Positions 3,159 to 56,225 of a stretch of 64,000 nt of DNA are shown one piece after another. The stretch comes from Dictyostelium discoideum. Taxonomy: Eukaryota. The translations under genes and the position numbers were made by a program. A model generated the notes under the pieces. It ran no database searches and was not told the DNA's origin. It saw only the letters and a list, made by a program, of their open reading frames with translations. The stretch covers positions 352,001 to 416,000 of the forward strand of contig CM000150.2 of assembly GCA_000004695.1 (NCBI GenBank). The letters run 5' to 3'. The stretch's first letter is position 1; every line of letters starts with the position of its first letter.

Positions 3159-3773
3159 TTATGGAGACATTTCAATTAAACATTTAACAAAATCTTTTTC
3201 ATATTGAGAATTTAATAATAGATCAGTTGTTAAAACTGTTGATCTTAAAAGACCAGGACTGAAAACCATAGCAACATTATCGATATCCATTTTTGAGTAT
3301 TGAGCATAATGAGGTTGAGAGACATTCTTTAAGAAAGGTATTAAGAAATTGAGTACCTCTTTATTTTGATCTGGGATCAATGAGATGATACGTGAGACCT
3401 CCTCTTTGGAACGACTTTTAATGGCATCATTATAGAGTTCGGATGGAATGATTGGATGAACCAATTCTCTAAGCCAAAGTTTCAAAAGACCAGCCAATAC
3501 ATGAGGATCCTGAGTATCCAATGAGAAATCATGTTCATTAATTTGTTTCTTTAATCTATTCACCTCTGTACCACTACCAGTTATACGGAAAATACCCTCT
3601 GTATAGGGACCATTTAAGCTCATAATACTCTCTGTCAACAATTTAAGTATCAATGGATAAGGTAATGATGATGGTGATAAAGATTGAGCATCTCTTTGAT
3701 TCTCCATAATTTGTGATAATGTATTATTAAAAATATTTTGATTTACAATTGTGTTATCGGATGATGATTTCTT

Positions 3774-6931: not shown

Positions 6932-8995
6932 TTAAATTAAAATTAATGACGATGATAATAATAAAATTAAAATAAATGAAATTGATAAAATTGAAGATTC
7001 ATTTGGAATATCTAGCTTACTACTATCATTGATAGTACTACCTGTAGTTGTGGTAGGTGATAATTTTACAACTCTAACGAATAAGATTTCAATATCTTTT
7101 GAACCTGTGTTGATGATTTCAAAATCAGCATTTCTGCCAACTGAAATTGAGTTTGTGAATTGAATTGATGTGAAATTAAATGTAGCAGTATAATAAGTAT
7201 TTGTAGTACCAACAGATACAGAAGAGGTGTTAGATACCACGTTATTGCTATCTTTATATCTAATTAACCATTGAGTAGATTGTAAATCTAAATAGGTTAC
7301 TTTAATTTGAACATTTGAAATTGTACCAAATGAAAAATCGTCATCTACAAAGAACGACATTGTATTATTACCAGTTACCAAATCAGTTTGTCTACCTTCA
7401 TAAGAGATACCTAAATCAGTATTTCCACCATAAATATTAGTTTTTTTTACACTGCCATTCTTTGTGTATGCACCGCCCTTGATATCCCTTTGAAGTAAAT
7501 TAGTCTCCAAATTCTTAATATAGGGCTTACCAGGCCAATTCAATGAGGTGTCGTAAATCCAGAACGTATCTTGTGCATTTCTGAGTGTCGCCCATGCATC
7601 GAATGCTGTTGTCGATTGCTTTCCTAATGAATAACGCATCCAATTGTAAAAATCGGGGTAGGTGCTTAGATAACTACTAGATGCCACTAAATATAGCCAA
7701 TTTACACCCATTTGTAGTGCTTTCAAATTCGACATTTTCACAGCATAATAAATATTTGATGATGCAACTGTAAAACCACAATCATTATAACACTCATTCT
7801 CAGTACCAATAACTCTATTTGGATTTGCTTGAAGTAACCATGACTTGTTAAATTTTAAATATCCACTAGTTGTATCAATCGTTACACCATATGCTGGAAT
7901 TTCTGATAAATGAAAATTAAATATCTCTGTAATACCATTTCTAATACCCATACCTTTTGAAACTGCATCTCTTGCTAATAAATTCTTTCCACTTGGCCAA
8001 CTATCAACATCAAATGGATAATCTTCACCTGTATAAACTAATTTATAACTATATGGTCCAAATATATCAACTAAATCTTTCATTGCTTGTTGAAACCATG
8101 TATTAAATGACTTTTTTTTTTTTCAAAAAATTAATTAATAAATAATTATTATTTTTAAAAGATTCTTAAAGTGTGTGTTAACTTACAGCATAAGAATAAC
8201 CTGTTGAAGTTGAATAATTTCCAATTTCAGTAAAATCAAATTCACACCAATTAAAAGCACCTGGTACATAAATGAATTTTAATCTTGGATCAGCACGCAT
8301 ATTTAAATCTAAAAATATCTTTTTTTTTTTTTTTTTTTTTTTAATTTTTTTTGATTTAAAATTTTAATTAGTTTTTTTTTTTTTTTTTTTTTTGGAAAAT
8401 CTCTGTTGGATTTTTTTATAATAAATAGTTACATGTGAATACATTTTTTTAATTTCTCCCCAAACACAAGAATTCCAAATTGGTAAATGAGCATCACCGT
8501 CATAATCTTGACCAATACTAGCGACATTACAAAATGATTGAATCCAAGTTGGTGCCCAATTTACACCAGAATTCCAAATTCTCATCCAAAATTGTTTAGT
8601 TGTTGAATTTTGAGAATTGAATGAACTAAATGTCATATCTTTTACAGAAGCACTTGTTGTAAAAGTGTAAACATCTTTTGATGGATTAATTTGTTTCCAA
8701 GCAATATCAAATACTCCTACATTGATATTAACATTTGCAGTTCTTTCCTCTGAAAAGAATCCAGAATTTGTTGTTATTGTTGCCCAATTTGGTACTGTCC
8801 AATCATCACCTGACTTTTTTTTTTGAATTTTTTTTTAATTTTTAATTATTATTAATATTACTATTATTTTTATTATTATTATGTTTAAAATAAAAATCTT
8901 ACTTTTAAATCAGGTCCACTAACTGTACCATTAATAAAAGGTATTGAAACAATTGTTAAAAAAATAAAAATAAAAATAATTGTCAAATATTTCAT
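6932..8995 (-). CDS. Secreted, probably GPI-anchored protein (~594 aa), putative glycoside-hydrolase-like. Four exons: 8903..8995, 8433..8813, 8187..8318, 6932..8110.
   Basis: Exon 1 encodes signal peptide MKYLTIIFIFIFLTIVSIPFINGTV with a GTAAGA donor. Exon phases are all 0 and exon lengths are multiples of 3. The C-terminus ends with a Ser-rich stretch plus hydrophobic tail (ILSISFILILLLSSSLILI), typical of a GPI signal. Trp/Tyr/Asn-rich mature region (NWAPTWIQSFCNVASIGQDYDGDAHLPIWNSC; NWCEFDFTEIGNY). The exon 2 donor is non-canonical GTAACT, so that junction is less certain. Confidence 0.6.
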
Positions 8996-24991: not shown

Positions 24992-27294
<2,303 letters not shown>

Positions 27295-29028: not shown

Positions 29029-30632
29029 TTATAACATTTTTTGAATCCTCTTATTATTATTTTTTAATCTATCATTTGCATGATCAACTTTATCAGTTAT
29101 TCTATCAAGTTGTGAAGAACTACGTTCAGCTTCATCACCAATTGTTTTTGCTATATTACTAATATCACCTAATAGATCAGAGATTTCATCTAAATCTTTA
29201 TCTTGTTCGATTAGAGCATCTTTAATATCATCAGAGGCATCTTTTATGAAATGACTTGTACCTAAGGTTGAAGCTCTAGTGAAGAGGGAGCTTTGTTGAG
29301 ATCTACCAGAGGAGGGAATGAAACGAATGGTTGGGTTGCCATAGATAAACTCTTTGATACCAGGTTCAAAGATAACTTGTGGGGCTTTGCCATACTTTCC
29401 ATTTGAACGTAAAACGATCTCATTGACAACGTTTTGAATGTAACTGCTTGCCATTCTAAAACGTGGGTATTTATTATTAAAGAATCTGACATCCATATGC
29501 TGAGGACGTGCACGAATCACCAAATACTCGACACTGTCGAAAGTGTAGGTCGAGATGATCTCGGTTCTGGGCTTCCTATTGGCATCCAATATGATGAATC
29601 TGTCGTTGTGAATTTGCACGAAACCTGGTATCAAACTATCGTTTGCCAATTTCTCCAATATGTCGATCTCAATGGGAGGTTCGTCCCTTGGTCTGACCTG
29701 CAACGATCTATCCAAGGGGGCAAACTCCTTTCTTGGTCCGTTGGTTGTATCTTTACTGAAATGGTTGGACAAGGCTCCCCCCACACTCTCAATTCCTTTC
29801 AACAATCGATCGGATCTGTCGAGATTGGCATGAATGTTGTCCATCTTTGCCTCTATCCCATCGATCACCTCTGCCTGATAGGACAACTCGTTCAAAGTTG
29901 CTATACCCGTCTCCTTTGTCTCTGTGGCCAATTTCAATGCCAACTTTGTCGATTGTGTATCCACTCTAGATGAAAGTTGTTTTTGTTTCTGTTGTCCAGC
30001 ACCTCGAAATAAATTCTTTTCATCTAAATCTTTATCAACTGAATTTGGATTATATATAAATGGTGGACATTTCCAAAGATGATAAATCAATGTAAATGCT
30101 TCATCCCTATGTGAAAATGTACCAAATGATACTAACTGTTCTGCTGTTTTAAATGTTATTGCATTATTTACAAATAATGTTGTATCTTTTTTCATCTCTA
30201 AAATTTTTCTTAATGGTATTGTTTCCTAAATTTGTATAATTTTATATAAAAATCAATTAATAAATTAATTAACTAATAAATCAATTCATTATTAATTATT
30301 ATATTTACAGTTGTACTACCAATTGAAGCTATAAATGATAAAAAGTTTTCTGTAATATACATTTTTCCTAATGTTACTTTATTTAAAGCACATGAGTAAT
30401 CTTGAATAACATTTTCTGTTTCTGGATAATTAAATGTTCTTCTAACAAGTTCTGTTTTAACTTTTAAATGATTTGCTTTATCTGCTGGTGATGTCTATAT
30501 ATTTATTTAATTTTATTTTTTATTTTTTATTGTTAGTTTTATTATTATGAATAATAAAAAAAAAAAATTTTAAAAAAAAAAAAAAAGATAATTATAAATA
30601 AAAAAAAATTTTAATATTCCAAACCATACCAT
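29029..30632 (-). CDS. GRAM-domain SNAP-25-family Qbc t-SNARE (~461 aa). Exon 1 is the bare ATG at 30630..30632 with a GTATGG donor; exon 2 is 30309..30494; exon 3 is 29029..30225.
   Basis: Exons 2 and 3 encode a GRAM domain across the intron (LVRRTFNYPETENVIQDYSCALNKVTLGKMYITENFLSFIASIGSTT|ETIPLRKILEMKKDTTLFVNNAITFKTAEQLVSFGTFSHRDEAFTLIYHLWK). A Qb SNARE motif TQSTKLALKLATETKETGIATLNELSYQAEVIDGIEAKMDNIHANLDRSDRLLKGIES aligns with the SNAP-25 N-terminal helix. A PH/GRAM-like middle domain follows. The C-terminal Qc motif DKDLDEISDLLGDISNIAKTIGDEAERSSSQLDRITDKVDHANDRLKNNNKRIQKML ends in KML as in SNAP-25. The start-codon exon is inferred and least certain. Confidence 0.6.
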
Positions 30633-38445: not shown

Positions 38446-43584
<5,139 letters not shown>

Positions 43585-54647: not shown

Positions 54648-56225
54648 TTATTTTTTATTTAAAGGGAGAATAACTTTTTGATTATTCATAAATGGTTGTA
54701 AAACTTTTGGAATTAAAACTGAACCATCAGATTGTTGATTATTTTCTAAAATGGCTAAAATTAAACGTGGTATAGCACAAGCTGTACCATTTAAAGTATG
54801 AGTGAATAATGGTGGTATTGAATTATCAATTTCATTATTATTATTACTATTATTATTATTATCATCATTTAAAATTTGTGGTGATGGAATAATTTTATAA
54901 TTATTTTCAACAAATTGTTGAATTTGGAAATCATCTTTTGTTGATTGATATTTTATATTTAATCTTTTACTTTGATAATCGGTGCAATTTGAAGCACTGC
55001 TGATTTCACCATATTCTTGTTTTGAAGGTATCCAAACTTCTATATCATATTTTCTGTATGCTGGTGCACCTAAATCTTCAGATGGCATATCTAGCACTCT
55101 GAAATGTAGACCTAATTCACTGAATAATTCAATTTGAATTTTTAAAAGTTCCTCAAGAATCTCATTAGATTCGTGTGGTTTTGAAATGATAAACATCTCA
55201 ACCTTACTAAACTGGTGTACCCTATAGATGCCCTTATTTTGCAAGCCTCTGCCAGCCTCGGGTCTGAAACAGTGTGAATAGCCCACCATTTTAATAGGCA
55301 ACTCTGCAGATTGCAATGGCTCCTCATTGGCGTACATACCCGCTAATGGGATTTCAGAAGTTGCCGATAGGCAAAGATCCCTATCCTTAATCCAAAACAA
55401 TTGGTCAGCATCTGAACGTGCATGAAACCCACAAGCTTCTGCCAAATTTGGGTGAATCAAATCTGGTGTTATCACAGACTGAAATCCGTATTTATAAGTT
55501 AGTTTAGAAAATGCCCAATAGGACAACGCCATTTCCAGCATGGCACCCTCCCTTGTGAAATAGTAGTATTTATGACCGGTGGTCTTTGAAGCCGATCGAA
55601 TCACTCCTAAACTCTCACCCAACTCTAAATGATCTTTAATTGGTTCATCTGGTTTTAAATAATTTGGTTTCTCACCAACCATTTTAATAATGTTTGCATT
55701 GGATTCTGCTCCTATTGGCACTGATGGGTGTGTATTATTTGGTATTTTCAAAGCTTCACTTGTGATCTCATTGAAGTATATATCATGTTTCTCTTCCAAT
55801 GCTATTAAATCCTCTTTCACTTGTTTACCTTGTTCAACTAATTCCAATCTATCATTTTTATTACTTTCACCACCACCTTTCATCATTAATTTCATCTTTG
55901 ATGCAATTTCATTTCTTTTTGCTCTAAATGTATCCAATTCTTTCTTTATAATTCTATATTCATCATAATTTTTAATTAATTTCTCTAATTCAACTGGTGA
56001 TTTTCTTTTTATAATATTTTCTTTAATTTGATTTTCATTATCTTTTATAAATTGAAAATCAATTCTTGGTTTAATTTGATTAACAATAATATGTTGTTGC
56101 TGTTGTTGTTGATTAATTTCATTTTGGTCAATTTGCTTAATTTTACTTGTATAATATTTTAATAAATTTGAATTTAAATTTAATTTATTATTACATTGAT
56201 TAAAATTTTTAAATAATTTTAACAT
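54648..56225 (-). CDS. Seryl-tRNA synthetase (class II), organellar/mitochondrial-type with N-terminal extension
   Basis: 525-aa ORF. N-terminal coiled-coil arm. Class II motifs ...YYYFTREGAMLEMALSYWAF..., motif 2 HCFRPEAGRGLQNKGIYRVHQFSKVEMF, motif 3 ...GTACAIPRLILAILENNQ. Confidence 0.8.
   Translation of the reverse strand: MLKLFKNFNQCNNKLNLNSNLLKYYTSKIKQIDQNEINQQQQQQHIIVNQIKPRIDFQFIKDNENQIKENIIKRKSPVELEKLIKNYDEYRIIKKELDTFRAKRNEIASKMKLMMKGGGESNKNDRLELVEQGKQVKEDLIALEEKHDIYFNEITSEALKIPNNTHPSVPIGAESNANIIKMVGEKPNYLKPDEPIKDHLELGESLGVIRSASKTTGHKYYYFTREGAMLEMALSYWAFSKLTYKYGFQSVITPDLIHPNLAEACGFHARSDADQLFWIKDRDLCLSATSEIPLAGMYANEEPLQSAELPIKMVGYSHCFRPEAGRGLQNKGIYRVHQFSKVEMFIISKPHESNEILEELLKIQIELFSELGLHFRVLDMPSEDLGAPAYRKYDIEVWIPSKQEYGEISSASNCTDYQSKRLNIKYQSTKDDFQIQQFVENNYKIIPSPQILNDDNNNNSNNNNEIDNSIPPLFTHTLNGTACAIPRLILAILENNQQSDGSVLIPKVLQPFMNNQKVILPLNKK

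Follow-up and report, generated by a model that had tools for sequence, protein, structure and literature searches.

What can make part of a single exon GC-rich in a genome as AT-rich as that of Dictyostelium discoideum? The question is raised by a SNARE gene on the minus strand of a 64,000-nucleotide stretch of chromosomal DNA from strain AX4 of this species (NCBI GenBank assembly GCA_000004695.1, contig CM000150.2, positions 352,001 to 416,000; hereafter the window, in whose own numbering all positions are given), the overall GC content of which is 22%. A sequence-only reading of the window had pointed out an island of GC-rich codons at 29260-29960 within this otherwise AT-rich gene and had offered an expression-linked codon-bias patch, gene conversion or a recently acquired segment as its possible sources. 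Comparison with orthologues shows that the island arose in place, through a long-running, lineage-specific fixation bias in favour of GC that is confined to 0.45-0.7 kb of one exon. Silent A/T codon endings were replaced by G/C much faster than elsewhere, most strongly on the D. discoideum branch, while changes from GC to AT were suppressed and the protein remained unchanged. The most likely driver is GC-biased gene conversion (gBGC) at a local repair or recombination hotspot, a reading to which we give a probability of roughly 0.5.

The discontinuity is clear when the G+C fraction at third codon positions (GC3) is followed in frame through the gene in 20-codon windows. GC3 is 0.10 down to about 29960, rises to 0.35-0.75 between 29955 and ~29270, and then falls to 0.00-0.15; the low-GC3 flanks comprise the first 150 and the last 70 codons. 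GC at first and second codon positions is flat (0.43 and 0.38 in the island, 0.40 and 0.34 in the flanks). Borders were set by maximum-likelihood change-point models on GC3 with three and four segments. The three-segment fit places the island at codons 155-378 (29952..29281), with GC3 values of 0.08, 0.51 and 0.10 for the successive segments and a log-likelihood gain of 53.6, and the four-segment fit divides it into a core and a tail (Table 1). Total GC is 0.44 in 29281-29952 and 0.46 in the core, compared with 0.26-0.28 in the flanking exon sequence, and both the coordinates of the sequence-only reading and its estimate of 45-50% against ~25% are accurate. The island is the most GC-rich stretch of the window at 200, 500 and 700 bp. 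The same bias is not found across many neighbouring genes: GC3 patches in five other genes of the window span 23-65 codons at GC3 0.4-0.5, as against 158 codons at 0.57 in the SNARE island.

Orthologous genomic loci were retrieved and their spliced coding sequences rebuilt. GC3 of the core region is 0.07-0.2 in D. purpureum, 0.2-0.4 in D. dimigraforme, 0.25-0.5 in D. firmibasis, 0.3-0.5 in D. citrinum, 0.4-0.7 in D. cf. discoideum and 0.5-0.7 in D. discoideum AX4. The pattern is thus graded within the D. discoideum clade, and it is flat and low in the orthologues of both D. purpureum and Tieghemostelium lacteum. When core third positions are scored as G/C (S) or A/T (w) in the order AX4, D. 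cf. discoideum, D. citrinum, D. firmibasis, D. dimigraforme, D. purpureum, the patterns SSSSSw, SSSwww, SSwwww and Swwwww occur 16, 9, 15 and 5 times. These patterns are nested as the species tree predicts for stepwise gains, and a one-off acquisition, or one conversion from a donor, is thereby excluded. The protein is as similar to that of D. purpureum inside the island (amino-acid identity 0.80) as in the N-terminal (0.83) and C-terminal (0.80) flanks. The C-ending enrichment of the tail is older than the rest and is common to all five species of the D. discoideum clade.

To assign direction to the substitutions, the state on which D. citrinum, D. firmibasis and D. dimigraforme all agree was taken as ancestral, and changes were counted on the AX4 branch since D. 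citrinum. Third positions of the core show 18 AT→GC changes and 1 GC→AT change; with D. purpureum as outgroup the corresponding ratios are 35:3 and 41:4. Per A/T site, AT→GC changes occurred at 0.367 in the core and 0.018 in the flanks of the same gene (Fisher p=1.5e-10), and per G/C site, GC→AT changes at 0.05 and 0.36, respectively (p=0.04; small counts). An external control was provided by 22-kb syntenic regions of D. citrinum and D. firmibasis, which hold about 2,700 synonymous codons in seven neighbouring genes. The background rates on the AX4 branch in these genes are 0.032 for AT→GC and 0.13 for GC→AT, and those of the island are 0.165-0.196 (p=7e-7 to 3e-10) and 0.02-0.08; per site, AT→GC changes are therefore 5-6 times more frequent in the island than in its neighbours and GC→AT changes about 4 times less frequent. 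As a guard against ascertainment bias the island was also delimited from the GC3 of D. firmibasis or D. citrinum instead of AX4, and the result was unchanged.

The acceleration belongs to one lineage. In D. citrinum the same island codons evolved at background rates (AT→GC 0.04, GC→AT 0.11-0.13), and the ratio of AT→GC changes between AX4 and D. citrinum is 21:4 in the island compared with 77:97 in the background (p=2e-4). For this comparison D. firmibasis, which lies at equal distances from AX4 and D. citrinum (0.206 and 0.206), is a fair outgroup. Two GC→AT changes were observed in the island where the background rate predicts eight (Poisson p=0.013; small counts), a deficit that does not fit a plain rise in mutation rate and points to a fixation bias. 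AX4 and D. cf. discoideum differ at silent third positions by 0.145 in the island and by 0.05 and 0.02 in the two flanks, and their intergenic divergence is 0.05-0.07 per site. Over all its sites, the core diverges by 0.06-0.07, which equals the intergenic level though two-thirds of the core sites are constrained by the protein. The two transitions are balanced (10 A→G and 10 T→C), which argues against RNA-editing-like or transcription-coupled processes. Read as the outcome of a fixation bias, the rate ratios imply a scaled strength of about 5-6.

The codons affected were examined by degeneracy class. Third bases in the core are G 0.32, C 0.28, A 0.23 and T 0.18, as compared with G 0.06 and C 0.03 in the flanks; in the tail C reaches 0.28 and G is 0.06. 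Every degeneracy class of the core is shifted: four-fold sites are 56% G+C, two-fold codons ending in a purine (R) number 35 with G and 12 with A (74% G), and two-fold codons ending in a pyrimidine (Y) number 18 with C and 17 with T (51% C). GAG outnumbers GAA by 13 to 2 (GAG 87%), and leucine is encoded by 15 TTG, 1 TTA and 2 CTC codons (TTG 83%); CCC, GGG, AGG, TCG and GTG are used as well. Leucine nevertheless remains TTR (TTA became TTG and not CTG) and arginine remains AGR, with AGA kept (9 codons). The codons of the core consequently look like Dictyostelium codons with the last base altered, and not like those of a GC-rich organism.

Expression-linked codon bias in D. discoideum is said to have been described by Sharp and Devine in 1989. 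To compare the island with it, the codon adaptation index (CAI) was calculated with codon frequencies from the 1000 D. discoideum genes of highest expression (de Oliveira et al., 2021, Table S3, PMC8321536). CAI falls from 0.71 in the N-terminal flank to 0.28 in the core, recovers to 0.53 in the tail and reaches 0.69 in the C-terminal flank, and is thus lower in the island than around it, the core lying 2.5 times below the flanks. The codons GAG and TTG make up 15% and 13.5% of their families in the top-expressed genes (PMC8321536), and 17 of the 85 GC-ending codons of the core are ones strongly avoided at high expression (TCG, ACG, CAG, GTG, GGG, CCC, AGG). The tail is different: of its 30 GC-ending codons, 26 are of kinds that highly expressed genes use relatively more often, and its C-ending codons (TTC, ATC, ACC, CTC, TCC, TAC) are mostly the classical favoured ones. 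The island resembles the known expression-linked bias (PMC8321536) in its rise of TTC, ATC, ACC and CTC, which is most evident in the tail, and departs from it in a core that is dominated by G-ending and avoided codons and in its restriction to part of one exon. The suggestion of an expression-linked patch does not hold for the core. Only the tail (29517-29236) looks like usual codon preference, and it probably reflects an older, ordinary preference for C-ending codons.

Orthologues outside the D. discoideum clade show other profiles. Polysphondylium violaceum (L003) and a metagenomic relative (L006) have a GC3 island of their own, reaching 0.77, at codons aligned to 218-345. It overlaps the D. 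discoideum island in part and is nearly all C-ending (C 0.42, G 0.13). The profile of the Cavenderia fasciculata orthologue differs again. Two gene models call for comment. In D. purpureum (L001, P0023) the gene lies on two contigs, with a partial 462-amino-acid model and a 463-amino-acid model that are more than 90% identical, and the second copy is either a haplotig or a recent duplication. The annotated T. lacteum orthologue (L002; 392 amino acids) is without the N-terminal GRAM part and begins with a poorly matching 21-residue exon; this model is probably truncated.

How gBGC would have produced the island can be outlined as follows. Recurrent double-strand-break repair or recombination would start in or near exon 3, AT/GC mismatches in the heteroduplex would be repaired towards GC, and G/C alleles would then behave as though favoured by selection, the implied scaled strength B being about 5-6. 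On this view the hotspot would belong to one lineage: it would operate in D. discoideum, with D. citrinum staying at the background level. Such a process explains why AT→GC changes are in excess and GC→AT changes in deficit, and it covers the rate above neutral, the indifference to codon preference, the turnover between lineages and the kilobase scale. Gene conversion, as raised by the sequence-only reading, can accordingly be retained in one form, as GC-biased conversion that may have acted repeatedly in place. A one-time conversion from a donor copy left no sign: the protein search yielded no paralogue, and the segment has no second copy within the window. A search of the island for a G-quadruplex motif that might seed a hotspot found none.

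Several observations weigh against gBGC. A genome-wide study of D. discoideum saw no sign of it: GC content is uncorrelated with recombination in 5-kb windows, intron GC explains just 0.4% of the variation in GC3, and the frequency spectra of AT→GC and GC→AT single-nucleotide polymorphisms in introns are alike (PMC8321536). The island is entirely exonic and contains no intron or intergenic DNA in which the predicted non-coding gain in GC could appear. Our counts were made by parsimony at one locus, and those of GC→AT changes are small. There is mild strand asymmetry, in that the A→G enrichment of the core (74%) exceeds the T→C enrichment (51%). Finally, highly expressed genes show a relative, if weak, enrichment of 68 of the 85 GC-ending codons of the core, so that selection may have acted in the same direction; the shift of the core agrees in direction with expression-associated preference for these 68 and is about six times larger in magnitude.

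The mechanism thus lies between biased conversion and selection, with selection the main rival and a pure mutational bias less likely. Selection for higher silent-site GC in this part of the mRNA or DNA, gaining strength in the D. discoideum lineage, is possible but rather improbable. It might act on the stability or export of the mRNA, on the positioning of nucleosomes, or on a stretch of slow codons that helps folding between the two SNARE motifs. More AT→GC and fewer GC→AT changes are produced by selection as well as by gBGC, an effect limited to the exon agrees with the published finding that exon GC3 does not correlate with intron GC (PMC8321536), and most of the enriched codons carry a positive expression-associated preference. 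The islands of P. violaceum and the metagenomic relative overlap the same region, though with a C-ending signature that differs from that of D. discoideum. Against selection, all degeneracy classes moved together, the avoided CCC, GGG, AGG, TCG, CAG and GTG included, and CAI fell with them; GC3 is flat and low in D. purpureum and T. lacteum although the conserved protein that they encode is the same, and D. citrinum is without such pressure. The RNA of the island shows no excess structure by folding energy (z = -1.3), and the island has no match in Rfam. A local mutational bias, for example a hypermutable patch under error-prone repair synthesis with a GC-favouring spectrum and no bias in fixation, is unlikely. 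It would agree with a silent-site divergence above the intergenic level and with the proteins P0016 and P0021, compared with P0001 among D. discoideum strains and D. cf. discoideum, whose amino-acid differences (T223N, I287V and I357V; V183I, A196S and I357V) all fall inside the island; several of them exchange I and V through A/G at the first base of the codon. A mutational bias would leave the GC→AT rate per G/C site unchanged, in contrast to the reduction seen both against the neighbouring genes and within the gene, and the balance of the two transitions speaks against the transcription-coupled and editing-type forms of it.

Preferred-codon selection on the core, a foreign origin and an antisense gene are effectively excluded. 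That the whole island consists of translationally preferred codons tied to expression level is very improbable. The tail would suit this idea, being enriched solely in C-ending codons favoured at high expression and common to five species. For the core it was rejected on CAI and codon identity, GAG and TTG standing at 83-87% as against about 14% in top-expressed genes; moreover, the equally conserved SNARE and GRAM flanks remain at GC3 ≤0.1, and the pattern is absent in D. purpureum. Still less credible is a single insertion of a segment from a source with GC-richer codons, whether another species, another allele or a paralogue, for all that the sharp 5' border and atypical composition might suggest one. 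A foreign or introgressed segment was rejected since identity does not drop in the island, the G/C endings are nested and graded over six species and not all-or-none, and the TTR and AGR codon families are retained; the island protein is closest to group-4 orthologues, and the homologues include no paralogue. The proposal of recent acquisition is therefore refuted. The least likely account is that a real gene or RNA on the opposite strand imposed the composition. A long antisense open reading frame (ORF) of 179 amino acids does exist, as the sequence-only reading had noted, and was rightly called spurious there. It lies in register with the sense codons, and its stop codons require sense TTA, CTA or TCA, which have been nearly eliminated from the island; its openness follows mechanically from their loss. 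The stop-free antisense length is 186 amino acids in AX4 and 119 in D. cf. discoideum, and it shrinks to 65 in D. firmibasis, 46 in both D. citrinum and D. dimigraforme and 35 in D. purpureum; the frame is thus broken in every one of these relatives, though only in part in D. cf. discoideum. Its translation has no match in Pfam.

Two structural features beside the island bear on the gBGC reading. A low-complexity linker directly 5' of the sharp island border varies in length among the orthologues, with alignment gaps or insertions of 2-60 amino acids, and the sharpness of this edge may reflect conversion tracts that halt at the indel-prone linker. On the 3' side, an intron of 74-95 nt follows codon 443 in D. 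purpureum, D. dimigraforme, D. firmibasis and D. citrinum but is missing from AX4 and D. cf. discoideum. The loss was precise, and the codons AAG, at the exon end, and GTT GAC, after the intron, became AAA GTT GAT. The same break-prone region may have favoured cDNA-templated loss of this neighbouring intron. Dictyostelium exons that flank lost introns are GC-richer, which was read as a mark of gene-conversion hotspots (Ma et al., 2015, PMC4683709). Our locus resembles that report in genus, in a precise intron loss on the branch with the largest jump in island GC, and in its fit to the hotspot idea. It differs in that the codons directly flanking the lost intron are AT-rich (GC3 0-0.1) and gained A/T, the island sitting 150-200 bp upstream. 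That study also compared GC content only, with substitutions unpolarised. Table S1 of Ma et al. (2015), which lists intron losses in D. discoideum, does not include the loss after codon 443, probably as the intron was missing from their outgroups.

The island is best regarded as a further instance of a phenomenon already known, the biased and clustered AT→GC substitution hotspot, in an organism where it was not expected. Reportedly, the classic case of gBGC-driven clustered substitution is mouse Fxy/Mid1, which straddles the pseudoautosomal boundary, and human accelerated regions such as HAR1 are said to be others. As in these cases, the GC3 discontinuity is intragenic with the protein unchanged, the AT→GC burst affects one lineage and not its sisters, the rate exceeds neutral, and non-preferred codons are hit together with a few amino acids altered by AT→GC changes (three I→V). 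Unlike them, the SNARE island has no known change of recombination context, its tract is only 0.45-0.7 kb long and entirely exonic, and the host is an extremely AT-rich amoeba that, to our knowledge, is without Spo11 and was reported to be without genome-wide gBGC.

The D. discoideum genome has served as a "gBGC-free" reference when the effects of selection and of neutral forces on codon usage are to be told apart. The AT→GC drive at the SNARE locus, which is 5-6-fold, outpaces intergenic divergence and is limited to one lineage, shows that this genome does experience strong local fixation in favour of GC. If the cause is biased gene conversion, GC3 islands could show where recombination or repair starts and help to explain the loss of introns near GC-rich exons; if it is selection, it would be silent-site selection of unusual strength and sharp bounds. 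We suggest, tentatively, that hotspots of GC-biased repair or recombination might exist in D. discoideum that are strong (B about 5), shorter than a kilobase and embedded in exons, and that are turned on or off from one sibling species to another. Were this so, the SNARE island and the weaker patches in the PIP5K gene and other neighbours would form a fossil map of unconventional meiotic or repair breaks, and these breaks would be linked to cDNA-mediated intron loss. For annotation the island carries a warning, as long antisense ORFs arise automatically in such GC3 islands.

The translated host gene is 100% identical over its full length to XP_647149 (P0001 in our set; 461 amino acids) in a protein search. 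The database names of this entry are GRAM domain-containing protein and Synaptosomal-associated protein 47 (NCBI, UniRef). The domain order is GRAM, Qb SNARE motif (~142-208), central region and Qc SNARE motif (~387-461); Pfam matches are V-SNARE_C (3.5e-9) and SNARE, and SNAP-25 structures in PDB match residues 142-208 and 387-461. With predicted Qb and Qc motifs within one polypeptide, the protein is by its domain matches a SNAP-25-family Qbc SNARE, and its N-terminal GRAM/PH-like domain is shared with SNAP-47. This likeness concerns the identity of the gene only and leaves the composition of the island unexplained. An exon 1 that consists of the ATG alone is also seen in the genes of relatives.

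Table 1. Features of the SNAP-47-like SNARE gene and its GC3 island in the window.
Feature	Position	Strand	Remarks
Exon 1, ATG alone	30630..30632	-	GT donor next, at 30629; minus strand reads ACAAAAAAATG followed by GTATGG
Exon 2, N-terminal part of GRAM domain	30309..30494	-	spliced mapping; GC3 about 0.05-0.10
Exon 3 of the SNAP-47-like Qbc-SNARE gene	29032..30225	-	spliced mapping of P0001 onto the window
Low-complexity, indel-variable linker (NLFRGAGQQKQKQLSS)	29971..30018	-	directly 5' of the sharp island border
Island core	29518..29952	-	codons 155-299; most of the Qb SNARE motif and first half of the central region; GC3 0.59
Island tail	29236..29517	-	codons 300-393; GC3 0.34; enriched in C-ending codons only
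Precise intron-loss site	29085..29086	-	between codons 443 and 444; 150-200 bp 3' of the island
Stop codon of the SNARE gene	29029-29031	-	
179-amino-acid antisense ORF, a by-product and not a gene	29434..29973	+	in register with the sense codons

Smaller GC3 patches occur elsewhere in the window. The PIP5K gene (ORF 24992..26233, minus strand) contains three short ones at 25568-25969, with GC3 of 0.39-0.49 and G- and C-ending codons alike. On the AX4 branch these patches show 8 AT→GC and 2 GC→AT changes, compared with 0:2 in D. citrinum, and they are a weaker version of the SNARE-island behaviour, with the caveat that they were delimited by the GC3 of AX4 itself. In an 8-kb comparison of AX4 with D. 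cf. discoideum, the highest divergence lies at 26251-26700, which covers a low-complexity part of PIP5K and an intron; at 0.10-0.12 per site it is about twice that of other non-coding DNA, and is probably alignment noise or slippage in low-complexity sequence. Further short patches lie at 7478-7606, 3351-3431, 38956-39027 and 43057-43125, the last of which is a Thr-rich run of mostly ACC codons (C 0.61 and G 0 at third positions) with a signature unlike that of the SNARE island. The second-strongest GC3 patch of the window is at 55182-55601 (ORF 54648..56225, minus strand), where 65 and 37 codons have GC3 of 0.46-0.49 with G and C both enriched; its translation, judged by eye only, presumably resembles a class-II aminoacyl-tRNA-synthetase core.

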